This document shows positions 4,427 to 25,294 of a stretch of DNA of 35,470 nt, piece after piece. This DNA is from an uncultured virus (IMG/VR IMGVR_UViG_3300028678_000003) (Duplodnaviria > Heunggongvirae > Uroviricota > Caudoviricetes): IMG/VR virus record IMGVR_UViG_3300028678_000003, one strand, 5' to 3'. Below the pieces are notes generated by a model, which was not told the DNA's origin, searched no databases, and saw nothing but the letters and a program-made list of their open reading frames with translations. Position 1 is the first letter of the stretch. The number at the start of each line of letters is the position of its first letter. The position numbers were made by a program, and so were the translations under genes.

Positions 4427-4437
4427 TACGTTGCTTT

Positions 4438-4746
4438 TTATTTCTTTTGACTTTTTATAATTGCTTCACTTTTATTCTTTGCGTTTCTTTTGCGTTTCTT
4501 ATCATCCTGAAAGCACAAACGGTCTACATATAAAATGCAAACCGTCTCGTCAATCTTTATGTCAGGTTCTACTACTTTAACAACCTTATACCTTCCTGAC
4601 GACTCCAATGCTTTCTCCACTATCCTTCGCTTTAATAAGCGGGTCAATAGTACCCTACATTTATTCGGTTCGTACCTTACTACTTTTGTCGGATACTTTT
4701 CAACCGCTTTTATTATTTCCCTGAGTTCTTTCTCTAATAAGTCCAT
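4438..4746 (-). CDS. basic hypothetical protein
   Basis: 102 aa Lys-rich ORF, closely packed. Confidence 0.7.
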   Translation of the reverse strand: MDLLEKELREIIKAVEKYPTKVVRYEPNKCRVLLTRLLKRRIVEKALESSGRYKVVKVVEPDIKIDETVCILYVDRLCFQDDKKRKRNAKNKSEAIIKSQKK

Positions 4747-4907
4747 AACAATATATATACGGCTACCGCCAAAGCCGCTGAAAATACAGACAAAAATACG
4801 TTCGTTCTGAATTTACCCCACTTTACTTTTTTCATCAACTGAAATGTCAAAGTGTACACGACCAAATACGCTATAAAGTCCAAAGCCATAAATGCTAATA
4901 TTTTCAT
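4734..4907 (-). CDS. 57 aa protein with two transmembrane helices (not in ORF track)
   Basis: MKILAFMALDFIAYLVVYTLTFQLMKKVKWGKFRTNVFLSVFSAALAVAVYILLWTY. ATGA overlap with the upstream stop; fills the apparent gap completely. Confidence 0.7.
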   Translation of the reverse strand: MKILAFMALDFIAYLVVYTLTFQLMKKVKWGKFRTNVFLSVFSAALAVAVYILLWTY

Positions 4908-6073: not shown

Positions 6074-6443
6074 TGTATTGTGCCTCCAAATTTCTTTTAT
6101 AAAGTTCTAATTCTTGAGAAATTTTTTCATCTATTGGAGTCGGTGTGTAAACATCAACCCAATTTGCCTTTTCTTTAGGTTCGTTGCAAGCGTACTGCTC
6201 CAGTGGCATCTCATATTCGACAACTTCCCAAGGATATTTGTTCATAAAGTTATCAAACACTTCAATCAATACCCGTAATTTTAAAGTGTCTATCAAATTC
6301 AAAGAACGATAGCATATTTCAGCCCAATGAGAAATACTCAAAGAATCACGCACTATACCGTTATTCCAATTCTGAGCATAAATGTCCTTGCCGTTTTCAT
6401 CTACGGATTTCAATAAATAAAAATTTCCCTTTGGAGTTTCCAT
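6066..6443 (-). CDS. hypothetical protein
   Basis: 125 aa ORF, tightly packed. Confidence 0.7.
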   Translation of the reverse strand: METPKGNFYLLKSVDENGKDIYAQNWNNGIVRDSLSISHWAEICYRSLNLIDTLKLRVLIEVFDNFMNKYPWEVVEYEMPLEQYACNEPKEKANWVDVYTPTPIDEKISQELELYKRNLEAQYND

Positions 6444-6444
6444 A

Positions 6445-7002
6445 TTATATTTTTGGTTTTATTATTAGTTTACCTTTTGGATAAGCAGTTGTGCGTTCTA
6501 GTCTATTTTTCTCTGATACTAGGAAGGCATACGGTTTATCGTTCATATTTGGTAACGTTGTTTCAATATTCCCTTCTTTTAATACCAATCTCCAACCCTC
6601 AACTTTCGGTTTAACGTACTTGGTTTTTGATTCTGTTATGCCATATTTCATATGTAACCCAAACGCCCTCTTTTCTTCATACGTCGGTTCGATTACTGTT
6701 CGCTGCCATTCTTCAAGAGCTTCTTCATTTTTTTCGAAAAACCCTTTTGGCATTAAATCTGATTCACACACAACTTTTTCAGGGCAGATAAATTTCTCAA
6801 GTGCTTGCTGAACAGTCTCGTCAATTTCCGGAGTACAAATTTCCCCGTCTGAATTAGCCGATCCGAATATTTGGTCATGCCAACGTTCAAGGGCATCTTC
6901 ATAAGATTCTTCTCCTCCCTCTATTTTCCACCCACTTTCTTCACCTGCATCAAATTTACTCATATAGTCAAACCCGTAATCTTCAGGTCTTGGTTTATTC
7001 AT
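6445..7002 (-). CDS. acidic hypothetical protein
   Basis: 185 aa ORF with two similar E(D/E)ALE(R/E)W segments. Confidence 0.75.
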   Translation of the reverse strand: MNKPRPEDYGFDYMSKFDAGEESGWKIEGGEESYEDALERWHDQIFGSANSDGEICTPEIDETVQQALEKFICPEKVVCESDLMPKGFFEKNEEALEEWQRTVIEPTYEEKRAFGLHMKYGITESKTKYVKPKVEGWRLVLKEGNIETTLPNMNDKPYAFLVSEKNRLERTTAYPKGKLIIKPKI

Positions 7003-7008
7003 AACGTT

Positions 7009-8496
7009 CTATTTTTGTATAATAACGTTGGATGTAATGTCGTCTAAAAACATACTTCCATTAACATAAATCAAATTCTCACGCGCTCTAGTAATCCCCA
7101 CATATTTAAGATTTTGCTCTTGTTCAAGTTGCCAAGGTAACGTTGCAAACTTCGACGGGATAAGCTCAGGGCAAAGAAAGAATATTGTATCATTCTCCAA
7201 ACCTTTTGCTTTATGGATAGTGCTTAGCAATATGCCTTTTACCTCATCTGAAAATATGTCCTCAATCAGCGCTGTCAATTGTTTCACGTTATCAACTTCT
7301 CCGCACAAATACCCAATAACTTCTATGCGTTGCATTAACGCTTCCATCTTTGGATGCATTAAAGGGTTTCGGAACCCCCGAGATTCAAGTTTTCTATACA
7401 ACTTATCTTGTTCAATATCCATCATCCTAAGCAATGCCCCGATGCTCTTAGCACCAGTTTTAGATATAAGAAGCAATATACCTTCACCGATATCTTTACC
7501 CCTCACCTTGCTCTTTATTTTGTTCTTCATCAACCAAAGATAAGTTTGTATCAACGGCTTCAAATTACGACAGAGTATCCAATCGCCATATTCTAATTCA
7601 GTAAGGCTTCCGTCACGAACCGAACCTTCTTTTGCATTCGGAGCCCAACTTATCTCTGGAACTATTTTTTGAGCTTCTTTAACCACATTTATAGCACAGC
7701 GGTATGAAACGGAAAGGGGGAGTTTGATAGCGGCACCGTTTAAAGCCGATAGTTTACTGTAGCTTCCTGCGTCTGCCCCCGCGAAGCCGTAAATTGCTTG
7801 ACGTTCATCTCCCACCGTTATCAATCTCCCCCTTCTATTTAAACAATTTTTTATAATAGCATGTTGAGCCAATGAGAAGTCTTGGCTTTCATCGCAAAAT
7901 ACATAATCAAATTTACGGAACCTCAATGTTGCGTCAACGGCTGGTTGATATATCATATCCATAAAATCGAATTGGTTCTTATCCTTATTCATTAATTCAA
8001 ATACTTCTATCGCTACGTTAACTTCAGTTTCGCCAACGTTCAGGTCATACTGTTCACATAATGCAGTTACAACTTCAATGTTACTTTCTACCAAGTTGCA
8101 ACGCATCAAATCAACAATCTTTGGTATTATATAAAAGTAATACCCCTTCTTGTTTTCACGTATTTCCTCAAATTTTTTAATTACCTTCTCAATCTTAGAT
8201 ATTGCTTTATTTGGGTTCATTTTCACTTTCCCCCCATATCTGGATAATATCATACGCCAACCGTAACTATGCAAGGTCATAATGTCAACATCTTTCCTTT
8301 CAGAACGCTCTTTTAATTCGTTTATGATTGAATTATTGAACGCTAAAAATATCGCAGACTTATGTTCAGGAACAAACTTTAACAATTCCAGCAGCACAGT
8401 GGTTTTACCCGAACCTGCAACTGCTGAAATGTTTATGTTAGCATCAGTGTCTTGGAATGCCTTATAAATTGTTATTTGATTTTTGCTCGGTGTCAT
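7009..8496 (-). CDS. UvrD/Rep-like superfamily 1 helicase
   Basis: Motifs AVAGSGKT, DESQD, GDERQAIYGFAGAD, LSVSYRC, STIHKAKGLE, YVGITRARE. Confidence 0.93.
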   Translation of the reverse strand: MTPSKNQITIYKAFQDTDANINISAVAGSGKTTVLLELLKFVPEHKSAIFLAFNNSIINELKERSERKDVDIMTLHSYGWRMILSRYGGKVKMNPNKAISKIEKVIKKFEEIRENKKGYYFYIIPKIVDLMRCNLVESNIEVVTALCEQYDLNVGETEVNVAIEVFELMNKDKNQFDFMDMIYQPAVDATLRFRKFDYVFCDESQDFSLAQHAIIKNCLNRRGRLITVGDERQAIYGFAGADAGSYSKLSALNGAAIKLPLSVSYRCAINVVKEAQKIVPEISWAPNAKEGSVRDGSLTELEYGDWILCRNLKPLIQTYLWLMKNKIKSKVRGKDIGEGILLLISKTGAKSIGALLRMMDIEQDKLYRKLESRGFRNPLMHPKMEALMQRIEVIGYLCGEVDNVKQLTALIEDIFSDEVKGILLSTIHKAKGLENDTIFFLCPELIPSKFATLPWQLEQEQNLKYVGITRARENLIYVNGSMFLDDITSNVIIQK

Positions 8497-8818: not shown

Positions 8819-9435
8819 AATTCCCCCGTTTCTTTATAATAATTTAATGTCTCTTTTATTTTTTGTAAGCTTCTCGAATATTGATTGCAAGTAACGTCTG
8901 CATTTTCTTTAAGAAATTCAGATATCTTTTTATCTTGTAACCTTGAGCGAGTAATTCGCTTATCTATTTCGGTAAAATGGAAGTGATGCATAAGAGCCTC
9001 AATTAAGTCAGGTTCTGAGTTGCAGTGTAATTTTGGGTGTGTTGTAGAAATAGCATCTGTCAACTCAACCGATAGGCTTTGACATTCTCGTTGGTAGTAT
9101 TTGAAGAAGTGTCGAGATATTGATTTATTGTAATAAAAATAAAAGTTATTACCTTTTTCAATATTGTATTTTGATAAGCACTTGTCGAAGATTATGTAAC
9201 ATTCCGATATCAACTCATCACGTTCCGGCATATCTTGCTTACCTGCCCCGTTTAACAGATTTAAGCAATTGCTGATATTCTTCTTAACAATGTCCTTCAT
9301 CATTTTGAAGACTACGATTTTGAAAGCCTCTTCCCGCTTTTGGCATTCGGTTGTTTTAATAATTCGTATCCAATCATTTACTAACTTAACACGATAATCA
9401 AATGTTGCTTTAAAAATAGTATTTTCTAAATTCAT
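8815..9435 (-). CDS. sigma-70-like RNA polymerase sigma factor
   Basis: Region-2-like DELISECYIIFDKCLSKYNIEKGNNFYFYY and a region-4-like C-terminal HTH (FTEIDKRI...SLQKIKETL); 206 aa. Confidence 0.65.
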   Translation of the reverse strand: MNLENTIFKATFDYRVKLVNDWIRIIKTTECQKREEAFKIVVFKMMKDIVKKNISNCLNLLNGAGKQDMPERDELISECYIIFDKCLSKYNIEKGNNFYFYYNKSISRHFFKYYQRECQSLSVELTDAISTTHPKLHCNSEPDLIEALMHHFHFTEIDKRITRSRLQDKKISEFLKENADVTCNQYSRSLQKIKETLNYYKETGEL

Positions 9436-13145: not shown

Positions 13146-14264
13146 TTATTTTTTCTCAAAATCTTCTTCTATTTTAGCTTTCAACGCCAAAAGTTCTTTG
13201 TTCCTTGCTTTCCTTATTTGAGCGTGCAGTACTGGAATCATTTTGTTGTTTGTGTCGTAAAGAGCAAACAATTCGCGAACCGAAGTCCACTTCATTTTAT
13301 CTCCTAAATAAGTAATTTTTTTAGCGCCTTCTTTTTTCAATATACCGTTGTCCAATGCGAACTCAATGTCTTCTTCTGAAAGAATTATACCATAACCGAG
13401 CAATATTCTTATGGCAGTTTCTTGCCTGCTGCCAAAATCATTTTTGACTACTTTCACATAAGTAACTTGAGCTACTTCTGTATCGTCAATTTTCTCGTGC
13501 TTCCCTATTGTAGTGCTTAAACGTAATGTTGATAAAAGTTCAACCCATTCGCCGCCCGTACTTTTTTTCTTAGAATGTTGTCCAAACCCAGCGATAGTGT
13601 CGTATTGATGGTTTAACATAACAAAATGAATTGTCCTAGTGTACATTTCACCCATCAAAAATTTAGCAAACATTTTCGCTGGTTTAGCAAACGCCCCTAT
13701 CTTTTCGTGCTTCATTTCAGTTATATCGTCGCCCTTAATAAATTTCTTTGATAAAGTGTCGGTATTTTCTTCCATAGTGTCTAACTCAGATTTACTCAAT
13801 GTAGCTCCTAAACTGTCCCACAGAAAGTAAAACTTTGGTTCTCCCATTTTATATTCTTTGAATAACGCATCAACATCATCCAATAATTTCTTAACCATCA
13901 TAAACATTTTTTCAACATACCGTATCTTCATAACGATAATCTTGCTCGGGTTAATTCCAAGCTGAACTGCGTATTCTTTACTATCTCGGTTTTCACTTGA
14001 TAATATAACAGCAACCCCAAGCTCAGGATTTTCTTTTAAAAAATGTTTCATACCTGTCAAACCAAGTGTGGTCTTTCCAGAACGACTCGGTCCGGCAATT
14101 TCGATTATACCTGTGGGGAATCCCATTATCCTTAGATTATAGTCCAGCTCTGAACTACCAGTGTGAGCCCAACTCTTCATCTCCTTGAAGCCATCTTTAT
14201 CAGATAGCTTAATAACGTCTTCGTTATTAAATCTTTTGATTATATCGTCTGTTATGTTAGCCAT
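13146..14264 (-). CDS. RecA/UvsX-like recombinase
   Basis: GFPTGIIEIAGPSRSGKTT, WDSLGA, LNHQY, STGG and VKVVKN motifs. Confidence 0.88.
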   Translation of the reverse strand: MANITDDIIKRFNNEDVIKLSDKDGFKEMKSWAHTGSSELDYNLRIMGFPTGIIEIAGPSRSGKTTLGLTGMKHFLKENPELGVAVILSSENRDSKEYAVQLGINPSKIIVMKIRYVEKMFMMVKKLLDDVDALFKEYKMGEPKFYFLWDSLGATLSKSELDTMEENTDTLSKKFIKGDDITEMKHEKIGAFAKPAKMFAKFLMGEMYTRTIHFVMLNHQYDTIAGFGQHSKKKSTGGEWVELLSTLRLSTTIGKHEKIDDTEVAQVTYVKVVKNDFGSRQETAIRILLGYGIILSEEDIEFALDNGILKKEGAKKITYLGDKMKWTSVRELFALYDTNNKMIPVLHAQIRKARNKELLALKAKIEEDFEKK

Positions 14265-14326: not shown

Positions 14327-15706
14327 TTATTTGCTTTTTGCCAATTTGTCTTGAATATCCTTCAAAGACATTTTTGCTTTTGGCTTAACTTCTTCTGGTT
14401 CTTCAACATCAGGTTCCGGAGCGTCGCCCTCACCGCCAATTGCTTCACGGATAGCTTCACGAATTTCTTCGTCCACCATAGATTTCTTAACCCGAACATC
14501 TAAATCGTTTTCGGCGATATATTCTTTCAGAGTTTCTCTGTCCATGTCATCAAACTCATCGTTAGTTGTTTCAGGTGCGTTATCAGAGGCAGTGGCAATA
14601 ATAGCTTCGCGGATGAGCTCGCGAATTTCATCGTCCTCAAAGGATTTTTTTACCCGAACATCAAGTTCGTTTTCGGCAATATATTCCTTCAATTCTTCCC
14701 TATCCATGTCATCAAATTCGTCACCCGCTTTTTTCTTAACAGATTTTTTCACAGGAGCTTCTTCTTCTTCGTCATCAACAACTTTCTTTTTAGCGGCAGG
14801 TTTTGCAGTTTCCTTTTCAACCGTTTTCTTTACCAATTTTTTTGCAGGAGCTTTGTCTTCTTCGGCTTCTTCAACTGCGTCGTATTGAGAACGAATTTCT
14901 TCAAGTTTTTCAATCCAAGCTTCATTTTCAAATAAGCCAATTTCGTTTGTTTCATCGAAATTTTGAAGACCTTCTACAGCACGGTCAAAATCACGCATAT
15001 TGTATTTTCCGATAATTTCATCCAATGGTTTTAAAGCCATAAATGCTTCCAACACTTCGTCGGTCAACGGATACGCAATATTCTTTTTAGGGAACGAAGT
15101 TTCGTAATAGTTTTCCCCCTTTTTTCGGTTTGGACTTTTCAAATACTTAACCAAAATTGGTAGACCTTCGTCTGGGTCTGTGAATGGGTCGATTTCAATA
15201 GCATCATCGTCTTCTTCAGAAAACGCCAATTTGTTCATTGCATCACGTACCATTTTCTTAAATTCCCATAGCATAGGATGTAATTCTTCGTCGGACGATA
15301 CTTTTGAAGCATAAGCCATCCAACTGTAAGTAGGCTTCAAAGAATCTTTATCTCCAGAGATTGCGTCAAGCTTATCGCTATCTTTAGCGCAAAATTTAGT
15401 TGCCATTTTTGAATATTCTTCAACAACATCCATTTTTGTTCCGCCGTGCAATCTTGAATCGTTAATAGTGCCGCGCCCCATATCGCCATCTCTCTTAGCG
15501 AAGCTCAGCCAGTAACATTTTTTAGCTACGTAAAAATTTTCCTTGCCAGGATGTGGTGGAAATATACGTATTTTTACAGACTTGCCATCTTCAAGATTCA
15601 AATACTCGTTATTGCTTGCGCCAATAAGAGTGTTGTCATCTTCGACATGCTTCTTCAATTTTTTAATAGGAGTAGCTTTGAATTGGCTACGAAAATCTTT
15701 TTCCAT
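14327..15706 (-). CDS. gp32-like single-stranded DNA-binding protein with extended C-terminus
   Basis: KIRIFPP and DPFTDPDEG motifs, an acidic tail, position between RecA and the UvsY-like gene, and its own terminator. Confidence 0.7.
   Translation of the reverse strand: MEKDFRSQFKATPIKKLKKHVEDDNTLIGASNNEYLNLEDGKSVKIRIFPPHPGKENFYVAKKCYWLSFAKRDGDMGRGTINDSRLHGGTKMDVVEEYSKMATKFCAKDSDKLDAISGDKDSLKPTYSWMAYASKVSSDEELHPMLWEFKKMVRDAMNKLAFSEEDDDAIEIDPFTDPDEGLPILVKYLKSPNRKKGENYYETSFPKKNIAYPLTDEVLEAFMALKPLDEIIGKYNMRDFDRAVEGLQNFDETNEIGLFENEAWIEKLEEIRSQYDAVEEAEEDKAPAKKLVKKTVEKETAKPAAKKKVVDDEEEEAPVKKSVKKKAGDEFDDMDREELKEYIAENELDVRVKKSFEDDEIRELIREAIIATASDNAPETTNDEFDDMDRETLKEYIAENDLDVRVKKSMVDEEIREAIREAIGGEGDAPEPDVEEPEEVKPKAKMSLKDIQDKLAKSK
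14438..14722 (-). repeat. two copies of a 41-aa helical module within the SSB
   Basis: 14600-14722 and 14438-14560; 35/41 aa identical; 162-nt period. Confidence 0.9.
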
Positions 15707-15722: not shown

Positions 15723-16241
15723 TTAACCGATTAATTTCTTAGTTTTCTTAATAGTAATGTTATTAACTTTGCCCTGAATCATATCATCAGTAATGTCCCC
15801 CGTTTGCATACTCATAGACAATTTATCAAGCTTGCCCGATTTGTCTTTAGAGCTCCAAAATACGCTTTGGATATAGTCGCGATTCTTTTGAGTTTCGATA
15901 AAAGATTTCTTCATTGCTTGAAAACCTTTATCTAACATTATGGCTGAATTTAATTCGTCCACCGTCGCCGCCTTACCTCCTTTTTGATTGGTTATCTCAA
16001 CCCTAAGACGTTCTTTCACTTTAGCTTCAAATATGTCCACGTTCAGTTTCTTTTCTGAAACTTGTGCTTCCATGTCAGCCAACAATTTACCAAACCGATT
16101 AACAATGACTGGGAACGTGATTATTTCGCCAATCAAATTTGAATAATCAATTTTCAACAAAGAATCAATATCGACTTCTTCATTAAACTCGTCGAATACC
16201 AATTTATAATCAGTACCTCCAACAGTTATTAATTTAATCAT
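15723..16241 (-). CDS. UvsY-like recombination mediator
   Basis: 172 aa helical protein with a KAATVDELNSAIMLD segment, directly upstream of SSB and RecA. Confidence 0.55.
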   Translation of the reverse strand: MIKLITVGGTDYKLVFDEFNEEVDIDSLLKIDYSNLIGEIITFPVIVNRFGKLLADMEAQVSEKKLNVDIFEAKVKERLRVEITNQKGGKAATVDELNSAIMLDKGFQAMKKSFIETQKNRDYIQSVFWSSKDKSGKLDKLSMSMQTGDITDDMIQGKVNNITIKKTKKLIG

Positions 16242-16560
16242 CGTTGCTTGTTTTTAATATCGGTTTATCTTCCACAATATCAGATTTAAGGATATGCAAC
16301 CCGATAACCGCGTATCCCATTATATCTTTAAGAGTGTCTTCCAGACTTTCAAAATTAGCGGGGATTCCCCTCATTTGTTTTTCCACCAAACTCCTGTACC
16401 TTCGAGCCTTGTCCCAAATATGTACCATATTCCCATTAACTCCTAAATCAAACGAAGCCCCACCGTAATCTAAATTCTTTTTTACGAGAATAACCGTAAC
16501 CGCCGCGAATATTTCTTCGATAGTTTCCTTTGTCATTCTTTCTTTTTCTTCCTTGCCCAT
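16234..16560 (-). CDS. DUF1599 / nucleotide-modification-associated domain 1-like protein
   Basis: KKNLDYG, IWDKARR and ESLEDTLKDIMGYAVI patterns. Confidence 0.8.
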   Translation of the reverse strand: MGKEEKERMTKETIEEIFAAVTVILVKKNLDYGGASFDLGVNGNMVHIWDKARRYRSLVEKQMRGIPANFESLEDTLKDIMGYAVIGLHILKSDIVEDKPILKTSNDD

Positions 16561-16580
16561 TCTTTATAAATTTTTTATGT

Positions 16581-17219
16581 TTAAAATTCCATTATTTTTT
16601 CAAAGTTCAACATTTCAGCGGGAAATTTACTCGCCAATACTTCAATCAATTCAGCTTTAGCTTCAAATTGACTGTTGTGAACATATTCAATCCTATTTAA
16701 GAAGTCATCATTCCCCAATGCTATTTCACGAACTACGTAAAATTCGACTGCAAGCCAGTCGCACCACTTTACAAACTTTTTTACACCACACACTGGATTT
16801 TGTATATAATCTTTCAACATTTTCGAAGCTGAAGTTATTTCCGGAAATTCAGATACATCCCCAATATGTTTTTTCTCGGTGAAATGTTTGTTTGCTAAAT
16901 GCCCCGACAGCCTATCGAGTTCAGACCTTAATGCGTTGCCGTTAAAATCGTTGTACTTTGTTTCGTGCGATATATCCCTACGTAATAAACACTCATCCCA
17001 ATCGTGTAAAGCTGACTGTCGAATAACATCTAATTTGTACTTCAATACTTCAACATTATCGGAATTACCAAATATATCTTCCAGCGCGATAGTGGCAAAA
17101 ACTAAAACTTTGTAAGAATGTTGAGAAACGCTTTCGTGCTTGATTACGTCAACTTCTTGCCATTGGATTATATTATCCAACCTCTTTAAATAATCCCCTT
17201 CGAAAATTCTTTTTAGCAT
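16581..17219 (-). CDS. YfbR-like HD-domain deoxynucleotide phosphohydrolase
   Basis: ESVSQHS, LHDWDE, VKWCD and REIALGNDDF align with E. coli YfbR ENVSEHS, YHDASE, VKQAD and EELAAGNNEF. Confidence 0.85.
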   Translation of the reverse strand: MLKRIFEGDYLKRLDNIIQWQEVDVIKHESVSQHSYKVLVFATIALEDIFGNSDNVEVLKYKLDVIRQSALHDWDECLLRRDISHETKYNDFNGNALRSELDRLSGHLANKHFTEKKHIGDVSEFPEITSASKMLKDYIQNPVCGVKKFVKWCDWLAVEFYVVREIALGNDDFLNRIEYVHNSQFEAKAELIEVLASKFPAEMLNFEKIMEF

Positions 17220-17222
17220 GAT

Positions 17223-20200
17223 TTATGATATTATATATATTTTTGTTTTGTCCCAAGAAAATACCCCTTTTTGACCTCGGTATGTATCCATCTTAACTCT
17301 ACCGTTGATTACTATAACCTTGCCGTTCAGATCAGATACTTCTTCCGACATATCAGCCCATGTATCTGGCCATACCGTAACCCCTATCATAAAGTTGTTA
17401 CTTTCTAAATTTATTGAAAGCATATTCCCGTTTTTAGTTTTACGCTCGTTAACCGCTATAACCTTGCCTGCTACAGCAACTTCGCTGCCCTCCTTCGCTT
17501 TATTGAACTCATCGCCCGCAATGTACAACCCCGCTATTCTTTTGCTTGGTATGGCGTCTTTAATCATTGTTTCATAATCTACATCTCCAAACCCTGTCAA
17601 ACGCTTTTGCTCGAATACCCAAAATGTATTTTTATCGGCTTCTGGAGAATTATAGATATCAGGTAGTGGAACTCTTTTTAGATTAAAATACCAAACTAAC
17701 AATATTTTCCTTTGCAACGGCATAGTAAAATCTTCAATTAAATCAAAAGCCCCCGCCAATATTAAATTAGTTATGACTCCTTTATTCACCTTACTCGGAA
17801 CTCTACTGACAAATTCTTCCAAATCAAAGAATTTTCCCCCCTTGTTTCGTGTCTCCATTATGTTAGTAACAGCAACTTCCCCCACGCCTTTTATTTTTGT
17901 CAAACTAAAAAATATTCGTCTGTTTTTATGGTCACAAGTAAAGTTTTGATCCGAGAAGTTCACATCTGGCGGTCGTATTTCAATTTCTTCGCCAATCTTT
18001 TTTATTTCCGCTAATCTGAAAGGTATATCGACCTCACTTGCGTGTTGCAAAGAAGTTGTCCAAAATTCCAGCGGATAGTTTACTTTGAACCATTGACTCC
18101 AATATGACATTATTGAATAAGCGGCAGCGTGACTTCTATTGAAACCGTATCCAGAGAACTTGTCTAACTTTTCCCAAATTTCCCCTGCCTCAACTTCAGG
18201 GCACCCGCGAGATATAGCTCCGGCAATAAACTTTTCAGACATAGCAGCCATGGCTTTCTTGTCTTTCTTTTTCATTATGGTTCTCAATATATCGGCTTCG
18301 ACTAATGACAATCCGCCTAAAACGTGAACCGCCTTCATAATTTGTTCTTGATAAATATATAACCCAGAAGTCCCTTCTGTTACCTCTTTTAATCCAAAAT
18401 CGTAATGAGGTTTCTTTTTACCGTTTTTTATATCGGAATAATCTTGATGAGCGTTACTTTCCATTGGACCAGGACGAAATACAGCTGTCATTGCTATTAA
18501 ATGCTCCAAGTTATCTGGTTTTACGCTCCGGCAATAACTCATCAGTCCTGTGGTACCGAATTGAAATACGTCCTCGTTCCATCCTCGCTTAAACATCTTA
18601 AAAACATTTTCATCGTCAAAAGGTATTTCGTTGGTATCAACCGTAATATTATAATTCGCTTTTATGAGCTTAATTATTTTTTGAAATTTGTCTAGTTGCG
18701 TTAACCCCAATATATCTTCTTTCAAAAATCCGGACTTGTCCATGTACTTACCTTCCCATTCAGATACTAATAATCCGTCAATCATCTTAACGGGAAGCCA
18801 CTCAAATAAGTCTATATCTCTTCCATCCGAAGCTTGCTTCGGTACAATTACAACAGCCGACGGGTGAACGGACGAAGCTCGGCACTGAAATACGGCGAAC
18901 TTAATCATGTGGACCAGTTCTGGATATGTCTGGACGAACTTAAACAATCGCTTTGATTTAGAAGCATATTCTATTAGGTCTCCCCAAGATTCTTGTTGCC
19001 AATCATCAATATCTTTAGTAAGCATATTCATGTCGTCGAAATTTAGACCCTTTATTTTGCCAAAATCTTTTATGCAAGTCTTTAGTTTCATCCTTGTGTA
19101 CGTTCCAATAACACAAGTATATGAATGACCATATTTTTCTTTTATGTAATTTTTTACGCTATCTCTATATTCTGTAGGAAAATCCACATCAATATCGGGC
19201 ATACTGTCAGCGCTTTTAGCGCGCTCGCCCGACACACGAGTTTCATTCAAGAAACGTTCAAACAATAAATCATATTTAATAGGGTCTACGTCGGTAATTC
19301 TCAGTAAAAAAGCAACCAAAGAACCGCACACTGAACCACGTCCCGAGCCAACCATTATGTCGTTTTCACGGCACCAATGACAAATGTCCCAGTGAATCAT
19401 AAAATAGTCGCAAAGACCGTTTGGTACTATTACATTACATTCTGTCGCTAAGCGCTCCATATACAATTTCATTTCATCTTTGCTTAAATGCGATAGCCGA
19501 GTTTCGATGCCAACTTGCAACTGCTCAAAGAAAGAAGATTTAACATCAGATACTTCAAATAACGGCAATTTTCGTTCGCTTGTATTAATCTTCATTTCCA
19601 CTGACTCGGACAATGAAACAGAGTTTTCTACGCCAGATACTATTACTTCTACTAAATCGTCAACATCTTCCAACCATTCCGAGTAAGACTCAACCGTATC
19701 TTGAAAACTTTTGTAAAATTGAGATTCGCTTTCTGCGTCGGCTCTGCCGTCTATTTTGTTCAGAGCTGACTTTAAACCGCCATTTTCTTTATCTAAATAG
19801 TAACTATCGTTTATCAATATGGGGTCTAAATATTTTCTGTATTTACAAATATACGTGTCTATATTGGACAAATGTTTTTTAAATAATGTAGAAGACGAAT
19901 ATTCAACCGTATCTATTTGGTAAAATAAAGAATCAAAAGACTTCTTATAAATGTTTATTAGATTGAAACAATGTTTCTTATCGTCTTTAAAGTAGTTGAA
20001 TTCACTTTCTTTAGGTATTACCAAACATAACCCGTCCCCGTATGTATAAAGTAACGTATCAGGAATAAAACCGTTGTAGTCGACGTTTATAGCCTTATTA
20101 ATCAAAAGTAAATTTTTCCAGCCAGCGTAATTTAACACAAACAATTTTAATTCAAAAGTTTCTTGTATGTCCGCTTCAATATCGTATCCTCTAGACACTG

Positions 20201-20741
20201 TGACGGTTTCTCCAAGAATACATTTTATTTTGTTCTTTTCACACGCAGTTTGAAATGACAACGCTCCCGCTAATGTATTTTTATCGCATATGCCTAAAAA
20301 TTTATGTCCTAAGAATTTTGCTTTATCAGCCCAAAGTTGACACCCCCCGCTCCCGTTTAATATTTCATATTCCGAATGAACCCCCAAATGTGAGAACTCC
20401 ATGACTGTCGGTTCAGAAGTTAACCCACGAAACTTAAAATCATTAAAGCTCGGTTTGAAAATTAATTCATTGTATTTGTTTTTACCTCTTGCTAAATTAG
20501 AATAATAAAACCTTCCTCCGAACTCAAAAAGTATGTTGTCTACTTCTTTATCATCTAATAAGTCATACTCTTCATCCGACAGAATAAAGCTGAAATCATC
20601 ATCTATTATTTTCCCATCAAAAGATTTAAGGTAAAGATATTTACTCTCCCCCTCAATAGTAATAATGTCGGAACCATTATTATCTGATTCCGACACTACT
20701 AGTTTGTTTTCTTTAACCCAATTTAATAAACTTTCAGTCAT
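17223..20741 (-). CDS. dnaE: DNA polymerase III alpha subunit (C family)
   Basis: PHP domain, GSGRGS, LLFERFLN, SMPDIDVDF, KEDILGL, YQEQIM, YGFNRSHAAAY, HhH IKGVG and a C-terminal OB fold. Confidence 0.97.
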   Translation of the reverse strand: MTESLLNWVKENKLVVSESDNNGSDIITIEGESKYLYLKSFDGKIIDDDFSFILSDEEYDLLDDKEVDNILFEFGGRFYYSNLARGKNKYNELIFKPSFNDFKFRGLTSEPTVMEFSHLGVHSEYEILNGSGGCQLWADKAKFLGHKFLGICDKNTLAGALSFQTACEKNKIKCILGETVTVSRGYDIEADIQETFELKLFVLNYAGWKNLLLINKAINVDYNGFIPDTLLYTYGDGLCLVIPKESEFNYFKDDKKHCFNLINIYKKSFDSLFYQIDTVEYSSSTLFKKHLSNIDTYICKYRKYLDPILINDSYYLDKENGGLKSALNKIDGRADAESESQFYKSFQDTVESYSEWLEDVDDLVEVIVSGVENSVSLSESVEMKINTSERKLPLFEVSDVKSSFFEQLQVGIETRLSHLSKDEMKLYMERLATECNVIVPNGLCDYFMIHWDICHWCRENDIMVGSGRGSVCGSLVAFLLRITDVDPIKYDLLFERFLNETRVSGERAKSADSMPDIDVDFPTEYRDSVKNYIKEKYGHSYTCVIGTYTRMKLKTCIKDFGKIKGLNFDDMNMLTKDIDDWQQESWGDLIEYASKSKRLFKFVQTYPELVHMIKFAVFQCRASSVHPSAVVIVPKQASDGRDIDLFEWLPVKMIDGLLVSEWEGKYMDKSGFLKEDILGLTQLDKFQKIIKLIKANYNITVDTNEIPFDDENVFKMFKRGWNEDVFQFGTTGLMSYCRSVKPDNLEHLIAMTAVFRPGPMESNAHQDYSDIKNGKKKPHYDFGLKEVTEGTSGLYIYQEQIMKAVHVLGGLSLVEADILRTIMKKKDKKAMAAMSEKFIAGAISRGCPEVEAGEIWEKLDKFSGYGFNRSHAAAYSIMSYWSQWFKVNYPLEFWTTSLQHASEVDIPFRLAEIKKIGEEIEIRPPDVNFSDQNFTCDHKNRRIFFSLTKIKGVGEVAVTNIMETRNKGGKFFDLEEFVSRVPSKVNKGVITNLILAGAFDLIEDFTMPLQRKILLVWYFNLKRVPLPDIYNSPEADKNTFWVFEQKRLTGFGDVDYETMIKDAIPSKRIAGLYIAGDEFNKAKEGSEVAVAGKVIAVNERKTKNGNMLSINLESNNFMIGVTVWPDTWADMSEEVSDLNGKVIVINGRVKMDTYRGQKGVFSWDKTKIYIIS

Positions 20742-21970
20742 TATAATTTACCTAAGTATTCGTGTGTGTAATTAGTTAACCTTGATGCAAAAAAGTTCTT
20801 AGCAAGCACTACAATGTCTAGAGTATCTGAATTTCCCCCCGCTATGTAACTGAAAGACTCGATTTGTTTTATCGCCCTTATCCTTAATGAATCTTTGTCA
20901 ACCATACCGTCAGACATATTACTTTTGTATTGCAAATAAATTGCGCAAAGATTATACGCTAAATACAAATACTTAGAAAATTTCAATACTGATTGTAGCT
21001 CGGTTAATGAAGCAGTTTCGCCCGCTGCTAATTTAGTTAGATTATCTATAATCAAATTCAAATGTATGTCCACTTCCCTGAGTCGATTTCCAGGAACTTC
21101 GTGCTCAAAGTTGAAATCCATTTTTTGCGAATGAGACACTTCGTACAATTCAGGATGGGTAGATTCCTTAGCATGGTCTTCTTCAAATAACCTATCTTCA
21201 AAAGCATCTTTCATTTTTTCAGCCGTATCGTTCCATTCATAGATATGCAAACTTTGCGAATTATGAGTTTGAGTACCTAATTCAACGCCTATGCAATTTG
21301 CGAATAACTCGGTCAAAAAGCTGAATTGAAAAATGTTCGTTGGCAACCCCCAATGCAAATCATTGCTTCGATTTTGTATCGTTGTTATCAACTTGCCTTT
21401 TCTTACTTTCAACATCACCGTATCATTACAAGGAGTATCTTTTGTTTTTGCCCCTAAATCAAAATCTGGGTTCCAAATCTGTAATACAACTTGTCGACTA
21501 TCTGAATTTTCATTCAATATCTTTACCGCATCGGCAATTTGGTCATGCCCTTGGGCCACATTCATATTTTCTTCCAAAAATGTATCTTCGGCTCTTACTC
21601 CCCAATGTCTTAATCTAAAACCGTATGGCGCATGAAATGTTTTGCCGTCGTCTGAAAAATCCGACATCTTTTTATTGAATAACGCTAAGAAGTGTACATC
21701 CTTCTTACCATTAAATATCCACATTGCTTCGGCAAGTAAAAAGAAAATGTTTATATCTCTACCGAATCCACCCACGCAGCGATTATACGGGTTTGTAAGC
21801 ATCGTTTTGAAATCAAGAAGCTCTTTTGTTTTGCCAACTCGACTGTCTTGAATATCCAAATTATCTAACATCCATTTATTCAGTATCGGGTACACCGCTG
21901 AAAATTTAGTAGTTTTTGCTACCCCTAACTCGGGACTTAATACATTATCAATGTCTTTCATATTACACAA
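20741..21970 (-). CDS. thymidylate-synthase-fold enzyme, probable dUMP hydroxymethylase
   Basis: FSDDG, YGFRLR, DQI, SRQVV, KDTPCN (catalytic Cys181), RSNDLHWGLPTN, SLHIY. Confidence 0.8.
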   Translation of the reverse strand: MCNMKDIDNVLSPELGVAKTTKFSAVYPILNKWMLDNLDIQDSRVGKTKELLDFKTMLTNPYNRCVGGFGRDINIFFLLAEAMWIFNGKKDVHFLALFNKKMSDFSDDGKTFHAPYGFRLRHWGVRAEDTFLEENMNVAQGHDQIADAVKILNENSDSRQVVLQIWNPDFDLGAKTKDTPCNDTVMLKVRKGKLITTIQNRSNDLHWGLPTNIFQFSFLTELFANCIGVELGTQTHNSQSLHIYEWNDTAEKMKDAFEDRLFEEDHAKESTHPELYEVSHSQKMDFNFEHEVPGNRLREVDIHLNLIIDNLTKLAAGETASLTELQSVLKFSKYLYLAYNLCAIYLQYKSNMSDGMVDKDSLRIRAIKQIESFSYIAGGNSDTLDIVVLAKNFFASRLTNYTHEYLGKL

Positions 21971-22064: not shown

Positions 22065-23093
22065 TTATTCTTCTTCCTCAACTACAACCTTTTTTGTTTT
22101 TGATTTTGCTTCTGCTATTTTTGCTTTAGCGGCTGCAACCTTATCTACCACGGGAGCAGCTGTCTTGGCTACGGCAGGTTTTACGGTTTCTTTGGCAGAT
22201 GCTTTTGCAGCAGGCGCTTCTGACTTCGCAGACTTTTTCAAATTTTCTTCCATTTTAGTTCTGTTTTCACCTAACTTTTTGTCAAGTTTATTTACAGATG
22301 TTTCGATGCTTGGAAGCAAAGCTGTCAATATTTCCGTAAGTTCGTCAATATCCAATGCTTTGATAAAAGGAACTCCAGACCAGCAAATTTCGTGGTCGAT
22401 TCCGTTCTCGGTTAACCCGTCAACATGACCGTTGAATGTTGGTAAGTACAATGTTGCTACAAAAGTGTCATCTGCTTTTACTGAGCCATTTTCCAAAGAC
22501 AATACGGCACGGTTTGAGTTTTTGCCTTTATATTTAACAGTAACTCCAGCGTTGCTAATCCAAGCGTACAAGTAATCTTCATCAGGGAATAACGCTTTCA
22601 AGAACTCAAAATGTACGCGGTCTTCTTCTACATCTTTAGGATTCAGTTTGGTTGCTTTGGCAGTTTTTACTACTTCTTCCTTTTTTGGGATAGATTTTGC
22701 AACTTCTTTAACCGCTGCTTTTGCGACTGGTTTTGTGGCTGCTTTCGCTACTGCCTTTTTTGCCGGAATTTCTTCTTCTTCTTCTTCAACAACTACTGTT
22801 TTTTTAGCAGGTGTTTTAGAAACAGGTTTCTTCGCTGGAATTTCTTCTTCAGCAGCAAGTTCTTCTAATTCTTCTTCTGTTTCTGTTTTAGGTTCTTCTG
22901 CGGCTGGATTCTCATCCAAGTCAACAAATGATTCAGCTAAGTCAATAAGAGTTTCAAGCTCTTCATCTTCCATACCTTCGATGCCATTTTTGATAAGAAA
23001 GGCGTTCACAACTGTTTTTGCTTCTTCTTCGCTTTTTTCTTTGAATCCCAATGCAGTCAATTTCTTGCTAGTGGGTGCGGTTAATTTTGTCAT
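22065..23093 (-). CDS. Lys/Ala/Glu-rich protein with a central folded domain
   Basis: 342 aa with EEEEIPAKK and AAKA low-complexity tracts flanking an aromatic-rich core. Confidence 0.85.
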   Translation of the reverse strand: MTKLTAPTSKKLTALGFKEKSEEEAKTVVNAFLIKNGIEGMEDEELETLIDLAESFVDLDENPAAEEPKTETEEELEELAAEEEIPAKKPVSKTPAKKTVVVEEEEEEIPAKKAVAKAATKPVAKAAVKEVAKSIPKKEEVVKTAKATKLNPKDVEEDRVHFEFLKALFPDEDYLYAWISNAGVTVKYKGKNSNRAVLSLENGSVKADDTFVATLYLPTFNGHVDGLTENGIDHEICWSGVPFIKALDIDELTEILTALLPSIETSVNKLDKKLGENRTKMEENLKKSAKSEAPAAKASAKETVKPAVAKTAAPVVDKVAAAKAKIAEAKSKTKKVVVEEEE

Positions 23094-23139: not shown

Positions 23140-23769
23140 TCAATCTTCGTGGCTATATGTTCTATATATTTCTCTTTCTCGGTGCAATTCAGAGCCGTAC
23201 TTAGTAAGTAAAAACTCTTTGTGCATTTCTATTATTTCGTCTGGGGTGAATGGGTCGTCGTCGTTATACATTACTCCCTTTATTGGTTCACTATTATTAT
23301 AAACTTTGGAGATAATTTTGTTGGTGCAACCTTTCAGATATAATGAGAATACAACTCTGTTCATTCCAGTCAATCCTTCCAATAAATTTATACCGTTTAA
23401 AATAAATTTGTTTTCTTCCGGAACTATGCAAGTATCAATGTCTGAACCAAAATCGTATTCTATATCGTCCATGCGAACTTTATAATTTTCACGGGCGATG
23501 TACTTCATAAAATCTTTGGATTTATTTGAACACGCGGCTTCTAAATAATACTTTAATGGTACTGGTTTTGCATAACCCTCAAGTTTGTATTTTCTCCAAC
23601 GCTTCCCGTAAGATTTAATCGAGGTGAAAATTTTAATTTTAAATTCTTGTAATAAATCTTCGTATTGATACGACAGTTCAGAGTAGGAGTAAATTTTGTT
23701 GGCATATTTTTTAGCCAAATGTTCATATCTGTCGTAGAGCACTTCAGACATTTGTTTTTTGATTTCCAT
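23140..23769 (-). CDS. sigma-70-like RNA polymerase sigma factor
   Basis: Region-2-like YEHLAKKYANKI...YEDLLQEFKIKIFTSIKSY and region-4-like LTGMNRVVFSLYLKGCTNKIISKV. Confidence 0.7.
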   Translation of the reverse strand: MEIKKQMSEVLYDRYEHLAKKYANKIYSYSELSYQYEDLLQEFKIKIFTSIKSYGKRWRKYKLEGYAKPVPLKYYLEAACSNKSKDFMKYIARENYKVRMDDIEYDFGSDIDTCIVPEENKFILNGINLLEGLTGMNRVVFSLYLKGCTNKIISKVYNNSEPIKGVMYNDDDPFTPDEIIEMHKEFLLTKYGSELHREREIYRTYSHED

Positions 23770-23912: not shown

Positions 23913-24350
23913 TTATAATATTCGGCATATTTTGTCGCTGTCTAAAACGACTGAAGAACCCGTTTTCTTGCAGGTTAATTCGAAAGTATGATAATCGATT
24001 TGACTATGTAAAATCCAAACTGAACCTGAATAGGAAAATTCACTGCCTAACGAATAATAATTGACAAAGTCAAGCTCCGACATTCTAAATGTAGGATTCC
24101 CCATGTCATCAAATAATTCTTTATGGAATTTATCTCTCGTGAGTTTATCGTTAATAACGCTATTCAAGTTATTTCTTTCGGCAATATTATTAATCTTATC
24201 TGCTTTGAAAGCCATCACCTTTTGGTAATATTGCTTATCTTTTACATTATAATATATCTTCCTTTTAAAATCAGCAATCAAATATTCTTTTTGAACCACT
24301 TCAAAATATCCCGCTACTGATAAATTCCTCGATTTAACTTCGTCCATCAC
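23913..24350 (-). CDS. hypothetical protein
   Basis: 145 aa ORF overlapping the primase stop by 4 nt. Confidence 0.75.
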   Translation of the reverse strand: MMDEVKSRNLSVAGYFEVVQKEYLIADFKRKIYYNVKDKQYYQKVMAFKADKINNIAERNNLNSVINDKLTRDKFHKELFDDMGNPTFRMSELDFVNYYSLGSEFSYSGSVWILHSQIDYHTFELTCKKTGSSVVLDSDKICRIL

Positions 24351-25294
24351 ATTTTTACTTTTGAAATAATATTTTCACTAAACTCTCTTGGTCTGCGCAA
24401 TCTTGTGAAAACTTCTAACGCTTCCTCGTCGCTGCATTCATCTATATCTTTCTTCAACGTAAATGTTATATTTGTAAAAAAGTTTTTTTCTAGTTCAAAC
24501 CCATATTTTTTTATTTCTTTTAGCGCGTCAAAGTCATAAAGCAATATTACATTAATGATTCCTTTGCTTTTTAGTTTTTCAATTTGCCAAGGACTTATTT
24601 TTTTGCCAAATGTGCAACAACATTTAACAGTTGGACAATTATCAAGTTCTAAAACTCTGTCTACTGCCACCTTATCAAATCTTCCTTCGACTAATATAGC
24701 CGTTGCCGTAATGTCTTTTATTATTTCATCAAAGCCGTCTAATAATTTAGAAAAATCAGTTCCAGCGCTATTATTATATCTTAATCTGTCTTTTGGCACT
24801 TTTTTGTTTGCGTATCTACCGACGAACCCTCTTATTTTTAAATTGTCGTAAATGGGGAATAAAACATACCCCTTATATTTAGAAATAATATTTGCTTCTC
24901 CAAACTGGTATCTTATAAAATGTTTTTTGTTTAACCCTCGGCTAGACAAATAATCGCTTTTGTCAAAAACTTTCCATCCCGCTGGCATCTTAACAATAGG
25001 CAAATCTTCAAGAGTTATTTTTTCATCTTCTTCCACAAAACCAACTCCATTGATTGAATCTCTAAATTCTATTGTCGCTCCTTCTAATAAGTATGACTTG
25101 TTCAGGAAACGTAACAATTTATATATAGAACCTGATTCTCCGCACTTTTTACAGTCCCAGCGCTGTGTTACCTTCGATATATAAAAATGTTGGCTTTTAC
25201 CGCAAAAAGGACAGTCACAAATGTACTGTCCTCTGGTGTTTAACTTACTATTTACAAGTAACACATTTAAATCTGAATCGTCTATTTTATTCAT
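24347..25294 (-). CDS. DnaG-like DNA primase
   Basis: Zinc finger CPFC...CKKC; TOPRIM motifs VEGRFD, LYDFDA, KDIDE. Confidence 0.9.
   Translation of the reverse strand: MNKIDDSDLNVLLVNSKLNTRGQYICDCPFCGKSQHFYISKVTQRWDCKKCGESGSIYKLLRFLNKSYLLEGATIEFRDSINGVGFVEEDEKITLEDLPIVKMPAGWKVFDKSDYLSSRGLNKKHFIRYQFGEANIISKYKGYVLFPIYDNLKIRGFVGRYANKKVPKDRLRYNNSAGTDFSKLLDGFDEIIKDITATAILVEGRFDKVAVDRVLELDNCPTVKCCCTFGKKISPWQIEKLKSKGIINVILLYDFDALKEIKKYGFELEKNFFTNITFTLKKDIDECSDEEALEVFTRLRRPREFSENIISKVKM

Follow-up and report, generated by a model that had tools for sequence, protein, structure and literature searches.

Thymidine replacement and hypermodification in phages are known from a handful of cultured viruses of Bacillota and Pseudomonadota, and the polymerases we looked at in these phages are not annotated as DnaE. 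T-even phages pair a dCMP hydroxymethylase with DNA glucosyltransferases (TAGT in T2 and T6), kinetoplastids carry base J, and the Z-genome cluster of S-2L and PhiVC8 comprises a synthase (PurZ), an HD hydrolase (DatZ), a MazG-type enzyme (MazZ) and a polymerase (DpoZ). Classical phages with 5-hydroxymethyluracil (hmU) in their DNA are reported to induce dTMPase and dTTPase activities, and the 5-AcNmdU of phage PaMx11 derives from 5-hydroxymethyl-deoxyuridine (5-hmdU) (PMC8989533); in Acinetobacter phage SH-Ab 15599 (hereafter 15599), the hydroxymethylase gene is followed by one for a demonstrated dTTPase/dUTPase that spares the triphosphate hmdUTP (PMC13458397). Here we describe a locus in an uncultured virus of the Caudoviricetes (IMG/VR record IMGVR_UViG_3300028678_000003), in which genes for a thymidylate synthase (TS)-fold enzyme, a DnaE-type polymerase, an HD phosphohydrolase and a DUF1599 protein stand in one packed series. 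The window, that is, the whole stretch of 35,470 nucleotides analysed, is part of a single 48,299-bp contig with a CheckV completeness of 49%. We consider it rather probable that these four genes form the core of nucleotide supply and DNA polymerisation in an uncultivated lineage of ~100-kb phages in which, most likely, hmU replaces thymine.

All genes of the window lie on the minus strand. The TS-fold enzyme, a predicted dUMP hydroxymethylase, is encoded at 20741..21970 (409 amino acids from a TTG start; PF00303, E = 2.4e-26), followed by the DnaE-type (C-family) DNA polymerase alpha subunit at 17223..20741 (1172 amino acids; PF07733, PF17657, PF14579 and PF02811), the YfbR-like HD phosphohydrolase at 16581..17219 (212 amino acids; PF12917, 32.0 bits against a cut-off of 25.9) and the small helical DUF1599/Nmad1 protein at 16234..16560 (108 amino acids; PF07659, 27.2 bits against a cut-off of 25). 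Pfam, PHROGs and NCBIfam agree on the families of the four open reading frames (ORFs), so that the preliminary description, which had listed these genes as contiguous, was confirmed in coordinates and family, as was its account of the junctions: a TAATG overlap at 20739-20743, and gaps that come to 3 nucleotides between DnaE and HD and 20 nucleotides between HD and DUF1599 when taken from the ORF coordinates. The minus strand at 20746-20736 reads TTA TAA TG ACT, such that the TS stop codon TAA (20743-20741) and the dnaE ATG (20741-20739) overlap by one shared base. As a 406-residue database form is 100% identical, the TS-fold gene probably starts at an ATG three codons inside the frame and not at the TTG. 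The packed series extends beyond 16234, where the DUF1599 gene overlaps the next ORF (p172) by 8 nucleotides, and continues to a RecA/UvsX-like gene.

To characterise the TS-fold protein, we aligned it (MAFFT) with SPO1 gp29 and its counterpart in SP10, PaMx11 gp51, gp16 of Rhodoferax phage P26218, gp103 of Maribacter phage Molly_5 (Molly), 15599 gp17, T4 gp42, thyA2 of Chryseobacterium phage MA9V-3 and, as canonical reference, E. coli ThyA, whose residue numbering is used throughout (T4 td is intron-split and was left out). Homologues were 127 of the best 150 cluster representatives from a 1.84-billion-protein library, 23 outside the range of 300-520 amino acids having been dropped. The protein keeps the nucleophile C146 along with E58, R21, R166, S167, D169, N177, H207 and Y209. 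Position 143 is Asp in the query, in SPO1 gp29, SP10, PaMx11 gp51, 15599 gp17 and T4 gp42 and in 127/127 homologues, and Leu in E. coli ThyA and MA9V-3 thyA2. The change H147N, the loss of W80 and the replacement of W83 by Phe or Tyr (Phe in the query) are common to the query, SPO1 gp29, SP10, PaMx11 gp51, 15599 gp17 and all 127 homologues; E. coli ThyA and MA9V-3 thyA2 retain H147 and W80, with Trp (E. coli) or Phe (MA9V-3) at position 83. Asn occupies position 177 in the query and 124/127 homologues, the Asp of T4 gp42 adjoining that column, and D169 is present in the query and in every homologue. According to a recent study, L143D/E admits water, N177 specifies dUMP and D169N marks 5-hydroxylases (PMC13326640). 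Read in this way, N177 points to a uracil nucleotide as substrate, Asp in place of Leu at 143 to the admission of water and a hydroxymethyl product, and D169 to an enzyme that is not of the 5-hydroxy-pyrimidine synthase type (RB69 and DLP3), in which D169N is diagnostic.

Similarity searches and phylogeny agree with this signature. The lineage is without a close relative in our comparison collection of 50,697 GenBank phage records, where the best matches of the protein are SP10 (SP-10), SP8, SPO1 gp29 and CP-51 (40-44% identity over residues 39-291, E down to 8e-42). The protein is not a canonical ThyA: the NCBIfam ThyA equivalogs score the protein at 15-72 bits against cut-offs of 108-576 (at best 71.7 against 174.55 and 71.2 against 327), and L143, H147, W80 and W83 are not kept. 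Canonical thymidylate synthases in the PDB reach only E = 3e-18, similar to the CMP hydroxymethylase MilA, and a long C-terminal extension replaces the C-terminal tail of TS. In a 75-row IQ-TREE phylogeny (11 reference rows plus every second representative), a hydroxymethylase superclade is split from ThyA and T4 gp42 (SH-aLRT 92); SPO1 gp29, SP10, PaMx11 gp51 and 15599 gp17, all from phages with measured hmU-derived DNA, span its base, and the query falls in a 36-row subclade that holds no characterised member and lies beside the SPO1/SP10, PaMx11/P26218 and 15599/Molly groups. Each of ten complete relatives (10/10) carries one TS-fold gene, namely this one, with DHFR and ThyX found in 0/10 each. 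By residue signature, best matches and tree, the TS-fold protein thus belongs to the dUMP-hydroxymethylase clade and not to canonical ThyA, and hmdUMP (5-hydroxymethyl-dUMP) is its predicted product, as the preliminary description had proposed. We also asked whether MA9V-3 thyA2 might be a hydroxymethylase from an isolated phage with DnaE; its L143, H147 and W80 mark it as canonical in type, it shares 22% identity with the query and it carries an insertion.

The polymerase has the PHP, polymerase core, fingers and HhH domains of a DnaE-type enzyme, preceded by residues 1-113 ahead of PHP, and scores 634 against the TIGR00594 cut-off of 434, whereas its 675 for the cellular equivalog PRK05673 falls short of the 1002 required. 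Its nearest counterparts among isolates in the 50,697 phage records, at 30-36% identity, belong to phages that infect Chryseobacterium, Cellulophaga, Tenacibaculum and Bacteroides. As the closest DnaE proteins of isolated phages are all from phages of Bacteroidota, the lineage probably infects members of this phylum, in line with the host first suggested for it. The window's own DnaE gene is uninterrupted. Interruptions were seen among relatives: a GIY-YIG/NUMOD3 homing-endonuclease ORF (4215-4784) lies between two DnaE halves in locus L013, relative G005 has a 914-residue ORF (L101:1226-3970) with Hint and LAGLIDADG intein signatures, and in many related loci the best DnaE match begins 2.8-3.7 kb after TS rather than 1.2 kb. 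In the nearest isolated DnaE phages, MA9V-3 and phi13:1 (Cellulophaga), 7-deazaguanine genes (queE, folE, queD/PTPS) occur near DnaE.

The best PHROG of the HD protein is phrog_7076, 'dATP triphosphohydrolase' (E = 3.3e-10), and a profile search of the PDB aligns it from end to end with E. coli YfbR (2paq; E = 4.3e-6) and also returns PH0347, OxsA and HDDC2; DatZ was not among the PDB profile matches at E <= 1. Invariant in a 32-sequence alignment are H34, H72-D73, E76, D82, H85 and D154; the metal ligands (H...HD...D) and the catalytic Glu and Asp align with those of YfbR, consistent with PF12917 membership. The protein therefore looks catalytically intact and is predicted to be a deoxynucleotide nucleotidase or phosphohydrolase. 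A stronger argument for its role comes from genomic context in PaMx11, P26218 and 15599. In PaMx11, with its proven 5-hmdU-derived base, a PF12917 HD gene comes immediately after the hydroxymethylase-clade gene and precedes one for a small protein with a weak DUF3310 match; P26218 shows the same order of hydroxymethylase, HD and small protein and further encodes an amino-acid:DNA transferase (AADT) and a kinase that weakly matches HMUDK. PF12917 and DUF1599 genes are both present in Molly, too. In MA9V-3 and phi13:1, both without a hydroxymethylase-clade gene in the stretch seen, HD is not adjacent to DnaE. From its family, its unimpaired catalytic residues and the repeated position of such genes beside hydroxymethylases, we infer that the HD protein may clear thymidylate, and the placement of this gene in a modified-thymine context, suggested in the preliminary description, gains from PaMx11 and P26218.

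We examined the arrangement in 82 distinct IMG/VR loci, assembled from ten found with a protein query and the best 80 of 564 confirmed stretches from a 30-homologue alignment query; the database thus holds at least 564 related stretches. TS identity to the query ranged from 45 to 100% and many loci lay on contigs of 90-124 kb with terminal repeats. DnaE directly follows TS on the same strand in 80/82 loci, the two exceptions ending right after TS, and a complete HD ORF (by HD-family hidden Markov model) follows DnaE in 66/82, the other 16 ending inside DnaE or HD. The recurring order is primase-p145-sigma-p342-TS-DnaE-HD-small ORF-p172-p459-RecA. Because TS-DnaE-HD is kept wherever the 82 loci reach, the arrangement goes beyond chance. 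The slot between HD and p172 behaved differently: readable in 65 loci, it holds DUF1599 in 25, one other family in 36, a 208-residue protein in two and singletons in two. The 36-locus family is unrelated to DUF1599 by hhalign (probability 0.2%), one singleton may be a distant DUF1599 (43%), and three of the 16 alternative slot proteins tested gave weak, sub-threshold DUF3310 matches. Among 14 complete relatives, DUF1599 exceeded the Pfam cut-off in three. TS-DnaE-HD is a fixed core and DUF1599 an exchangeable accessory. Of the unit drawn in the preliminary description, the coupling of hydroxymethylase to C-family polymerase and the conserved place of HD (66 of the 66 loci that reach it) therefore stand, and the DUF1599 gene drops out as a fixed member, an unrelated small protein taking its position in most loci.

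The DUF1599 protein itself may be a MazG-like nucleotide pyrophosphohydrolase, to judge from a weak likeness of its modelled structure. A single-sequence AF2 model was too poor (pLDDT 55) and was replaced by one built from a 35-sequence alignment (pLDDT 82). Foldseek with the latter returned no match at E <= 0.001; its sub-threshold list was headed by AF_0060 (2p06), which we take to belong to the all-alpha NTP pyrophosphohydrolase superfamily, and also contained YpjD, mouse and human dCTPase, HisE and MazG chains. The DUF1599 profile gave chance-level matches only against PDB sequences. Its neighbours in the Atlas are DUF1599 clusters. Homologues mostly have 89-105 amino acids, and identity among those aligned is unusually high for DUF1599, at 60-86%, against 40-57% for HD (90% in one near-identical strain) and 36-56% for TS. 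Members of the family are also encoded by phages of Gordonia and Streptococcus and by a Bacteroides genome. SP10 gp189 (L016 11075-11524), the gene right after the hydroxymethylase, matches DUF1599 below the cut-off (E = 0.0012, 16.8 bits) and aligns over 'ES..DT..D...Y', with an hhalign probability of only 0.7%, which is a hint of a relation at most. Comparison of DUF1599 with SPO1 gp30.2 returned nothing, and no relation to 15599 gp18 was found by hhalign, a weak test in which a low-diversity profile was set against a single sequence. Among the papers listed in literature searches, there was no functional study of DUF1599/Nmad1 or DUF3310.

A 39-base pattern from the left end of the record led to two further IMG/VR contigs, G011 and G012, which share 6253 bp with that end (99.98% and 100% identity, respectively) and continue far past it. 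Given this near-identical overlap, we treated them as the missing half of the same phage. They carry genes for a DEDDh exonuclease, large terminase, portal, capsid and lysis, as well as a trimeric dUTPase (E = 9.5e-26; phrog_135, E = 7.6e-51). On G012 lies a TAGT-family glycosyltransferase (PF20691, E = 3.6e-19, 69.9 bits against a cut-off of 27.5), which also matches phrog_842, 'beta-glucosyl-HMC-alpha-glucosyltransferase' (E = 4.6e-22). About 14 kb past the left end of the record, beside the portal gene, is a 336-residue HMUDK_hel protein (PF18723, E = 1.2e-51) that aligns over its full length with PaMx11 gp50 (25% identity, E = 1e-18). HMUDK_hel was found in 16/16 relatives that are at least 97% complete and, among named phages, in SP10 (within the frame of the verified kinase gp186), PaMx11 and 15599, all of them hypermodifiers; SPO1, Molly, P26218 and MA9V-3 gave no match, nor did the same-species or related fragments G006-G010, which are 25-64% complete. 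TAGT enzymes of T2 and T6 add glucose to glucosyl-hydroxymethylcytosine (PMC13216743, PMC13390438), and the verified 5-hmdU DNA kinases are P-loop proteins (PMC8989533). The record itself encodes a 167-residue P-loop kinase outside the window (L002 8857-9360; AAA_33, E = 1.3e-15) with 29% identity to T4 PseT kinase domains. We considered it as a candidate 5-hmdU DNA kinase (5-HMUDK), but its best matches are PseT-type and it has only the P-loop in common with PaMx11 gp49 and P26218 gp15. It might phosphorylate hmdUMP or polynucleotides, or be the P-loop partner that HMUDK_hel lacks.

Also on G012, a 168-residue protein of a 'DNA methyltransferase' PHROG (L108:7767-8273, E = 3.5e-42) adjoins the dUTPase gene and a radical-SAM/SPASM protein (L109:3927-4895) lies among the virion genes; in relative G001 an FkbM-type methyltransferase follows HMUDK_hel.

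These elements suggest the following pathway. The TS-fold enzyme, by its diagnostic residues and clade membership, would convert dUMP and methylene-tetrahydrofolate to hmdUMP, with water rather than hydride resolving the exocyclic methylene intermediate. Kinases, for which the P-loop kinase encoded outside the window is a candidate, would raise hmdUMP to hmdUTP, and DnaE, whose start codon is seen to overlap the hydroxymethylase stop, would incorporate hmdUTP, presumably in preference. The YfbR-like HD protein would hydrolyse competing dTMP and possibly dTTP, like the dTMPase and dTTPase of hmU phages, and the trimeric dUTPase in the other half of the genome would supply dUMP. After replication, the hydroxymethyl group would probably be decorated, since TAGT and HMUDK_hel are encoded; an AADT was not recognisable. 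The DNA of this phage is thus probably hmU-based and glycosylated and replicated by a C-family polymerase. Hypermodification had been left open in the preliminary description for want of a kinase or aGPT-PPlase; no AADT or PF18748 kinase was detected either in wider searches in which no positive control matched, and TAGT and HMUDK_hel on the overlapping contigs now tip that question towards probable glycosylation. The earlier interpretation is thus supported in part: hydroxymethylase clade, DnaE coupling, HD context and Bacteroidota host agree with it, DUF1599 is removed as a fixed member, and clearance of thymidine nucleotides by HD or DUF1599 and a preference of DnaE for hmdUTP are conjectural. 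A fuller proposal, in which a widespread Bacteroidota lineage makes base-J-like glycosylated hmU DNA without TET/JBP, DnaE accepts hmdUTP, the HD protein is thymidylate-specific and TAGT glycosylates hmU, we put forward as speculative and, taken as a whole, unlikely. Among the papers listed in a literature search, none was, by title or abstract, on hmU or hypermodification combined with DnaE and Bacteroidota.

Several observations weigh against an hmU-based core of this kind. For the HD protein, no feature of the sequence points to thymidine specificity, and the 'RW' of YfbR is 'QW' here, with Gln19 invariant in the family and W20 kept; in the structure paper on YfbR this Arg-Trp pair reportedly sits at the substrate phosphate and sugar. 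BLASTP between HD and its counterparts in PaMx11 and P26218 is not significant (E = 0.65 and 0.006), tblastn found no match for it in the phage collection, and no PF12917 gene was found in SPO1, SP10 or 15599. DUF1599 is absent from 10/14 complete relatives at E <= 0.01. The TS tree has an outgroup of only three rows and omits half of the representatives, so it is supportive rather than conclusive. On the side of hypermodification, the HMUDK_hel protein also partly matches the PHROG 'terminase small subunit' (E = 1.3e-10), and dCMP deaminase and TAGT were each found in only 1/5 complete relatives. The amino-acid:DNA transferase family PF18724, which belongs to thymidine hypermodification systems of the M6, ViI and PhiW-14 type, was found in 0/5 complete relatives and in no ORF of the record or G012, a weak negative in that no positive control matched either, and P-loop 5-HMUDK (PF18748) in 0/11 records with an insensitive model that gives the verified PaMx11 gp49 only E = 0.002. 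The M6 counterpart of HMUDK_hel, gp55, proved dispensable in vitro (PMC8989533).

How far these points favour other explanations differs between the genes. Were the locus an ordinary replication module, a divergent TS would make dTMP for canonical thymine DNA, and the HD and DUF1599 proteins would be housekeeping enzymes. Pfam and all four matching PHROGs do name the TS-fold protein a thymidylate synthase, the catalytic and binding residues from C146 to Y209 listed above are kept, and other Bacteroidota DnaE phages such as MA9V-3 have a canonical-type TS. However, L143D, H147N and the loss of W80 occur in every characterised dUMP hydroxymethylase compared and in no canonical enzyme compared, the protein reaches 71 bits where the ThyA equivalogs demand 108-576, has an extension instead of the TS tail and is only 22% identical to MA9V-3 thyA2, DHFR is absent from 10/10 complete relatives, and TAGT and HMUDK_hel are encoded by the same phage, all of which makes this reading very improbable. 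The TS-fold enzyme might instead make another C5-modified nucleotide, such as 5-hydroxy-dUMP or some other one-carbon product, that accepts the TAGT sugar. TS homologues with the unexpected chemistry of making 5-hydroxy-dCMP have recently been shown (PMC13326640), the 36-row subclade of the query offers no characterised member, and a glycosyltransferase is present where an amino-acid:DNA transferase was not found. We nevertheless regard such a product as improbable, with the hydroxylase-diagnostic D169N absent from the query and from 127/127 homologues, the remaining signature positions matching the enzymes of hmU phages, and HMUDK_hel, a family that we found only in hmU hypermodifiers, belonging to the core genes of the lineage.

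Of more weight, though still doubtful in our view, is the possibility that hmU is used while the HD and DUF1599 proteins are replisome-associated, sanitise nucleotide pools or serve counter-defence, dTTP being excluded elsewhere or not at all, with partial replacement as a result. YfbR is not known to be base-specific, SPO1, SP10 and 15599 lack this HD family, non-homologous small proteins fill the slot after HD at 40/65 loci (weak DUF3310 in 3/16 tested), and DUF1599 reaches Gordonia and Streptococcus phages and a Bacteroides genome; papers on phages of many kinds list DUF3310. In contrast, HD stands next to DnaE in 66/66 loci that reach it, the unrelated PolA phages PaMx11 and P26218 both have a PF12917 gene immediately after the hydroxymethylase, and in MA9V-3 and phi13:1, where no hydroxymethylase-clade gene was seen in the stretch, HD is not beside DnaE. 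We retain, as the most likely reading, an hmU-for-thymine core in which HD would clear thymidylate.

Around this core, the conserved block continues downstream with p172 at 15723..16241 (phrog_20212, E = 1.1e-23; no Pfam family), p459 at 14327..15706 (no Pfam or PHROG family; a conserved position before RecA) and, at its downstream end, the RecA/UvsX-like recombinase at 13146..14264 (PF00154, E = 7.3e-17; phrog_97, E = 3.2e-41), all on the minus strand. Neither p172 nor p459 has an assigned function. The C-terminal half of p459 is acidic and internally repeated, with near-identical segments at about residues 329-356 and 383-415 (BLAST), and comparisons with 15599 gp18 and Molly gp104 showed no relation. 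Upstream of TS, likewise on the minus strand and in the same order in related loci, are p342 (22065-23093), a sigma-70-like factor (23140-23769; TIGR02937, E = 3e-6), p145 (23913-24350), conserved like p342, and a primase (24347-25294; phrog_47, E = 9e-33). The record holds a replication and recombination module, with primase, DnaB-type helicase, SF2 and UvrD helicases, SbcCD, RecA and resolvase, together with two sigma-70-like factors, an HU-type protein, the P-loop kinase and a tail-fibre gene at one end. Of the two sigma-70/ECF-like factors, one is that just 5' of TS in the conserved block (window 23140-23769) and the other lies at 6369-7637 of the record (L002). The HU-type protein is encoded outside the window at 316-597 of the record (L002; PF00216, E = 3e-25); in SPO1 and SP10 an HU-type gene (TF1 or 'histone family DNA-binding protein') lies between hydroxymethylase and polymerase, and TF1 prefers hmU DNA. 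Window and record differ by two single bases, at 9159 (C versus A) and 15469 (T versus C), which could reflect ambiguity codes, or variation between strains, that were resolved in different ways.

The first step of thymine replacement known from cultured phages is joined in the present lineage to a DnaE-type polymerase through overlapping stop and start codons. If our reading is correct, a C-family replicase would both copy and synthesise DNA fully substituted with hmU, the YfbR-like HD proteins beside hydroxymethylases would gain a testable role in thymine exclusion, and hmU-directed glycosyltransferases could be sought in the lineage. On the fuller, speculative proposal, no earlier C-family polymerase would have been linked to a fully modified base, TAGT would have a new acceptor, and the classical 'dTMPase' of hmU phages would be matched to a type of gene. 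Such DNA would also bear on the metagenomic recovery of these phages and on restriction evasion in Bacteroidota. Maribacter phage Molly_5 (L014 8210-12969 and 23024-23410) looks like a cultivable test case for glycosylated hydroxymethyl-pyrimidine DNA in Bacteroidota phages: its hydroxymethylase-clade TS directly follows genes for UDP-glucose dehydrogenase, epimerase and beta-glucosyltransferase, its DUF1599 gene stands right after DNA polymerase I and its PF12917 HD gene lies elsewhere.

Compared with described systems, the locus is closest in its first enzyme to the Bacillus phages SPO1, SP8 and SP10, the nearest characterised TS-fold homologues, which share its active-site signature and long C-terminal extension. 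SPO1 and SP10 also encode the hydroxymethylase just upstream of the replicative polymerase and have an HU-type gene in the genome. In contrast to the present phage, their polymerase is not annotated as DnaE and lies two to four genes (including TF1) from gene 29, no PF12917 HD gene was found in them, their hosts are Bacillota, and SPO1 is without HMUDK_hel. The arrangement after the hydroxymethylase is more like that of PaMx11/M6 and P26218, in which a hydroxymethylase-clade TS immediately precedes a YfbR-like HD gene, with a small protein next in line, and PaMx11 gp50 is a homologue of HMUDK_hel. Unlike here, the polymerase of PaMx11 and P26218 is not DnaE and none stands between TS and HD; AADT/aGPT-PPlase and P-loop 5-HMUDK genes lie beside the hydroxymethylase in PaMx11/M6/P26218, whereas no AADT was found in the present phage; and the HD proteins of PaMx11 and P26218, though of the same family, have no significant pairwise similarity to the HD protein described here. 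In 15599 (alpha-dapT), the order of hydroxymethylase, dTTP/dUTP remover and RecA/UvsX follows the logic we propose for TS and HD; its dTTPase, however, joins a kinase-like N-terminus to a dUTPase_2 all-alpha domain instead of being an HD protein and showed no relation to DUF1599 (hhalign) or to p459, and the replisome of 15599 is T4-like.

Likeness to systems that modify other bases is one of outline. The Z-genome cluster, too, combines a synthase, an HD enzyme that removes the canonical competitor, a MazG-type enzyme and a polymerase, and the HD protein here matches a dATP-triphosphohydrolase PHROG; the base there is 2-aminoadenine, the synthase is of another family, and DatZ is not among the HD profile matches. 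With T-even phages the lineage shares a TS-fold hydroxymethylase acting at the nucleotide level and a TAGT DNA glycosyltransferase in one genome, but the substrate residue is Asn (uracil) here and Asp (cytosine) there, and the base to which TAGT adds glucose in T2 and T6 already carries one. Glycosylated hydroxymethyl-uracil, the product predicted here, would be similar to base J, although no TET/JBP gene was seen in the present phage. Four differences thus set this lineage apart from the pathways of SPO1, M6 and 15599: the polymerase family, the direct coupling of TS to polymerase, the host group, and the pairing of a uracil hydroxymethylase with TAGT without a recognisable AADT.

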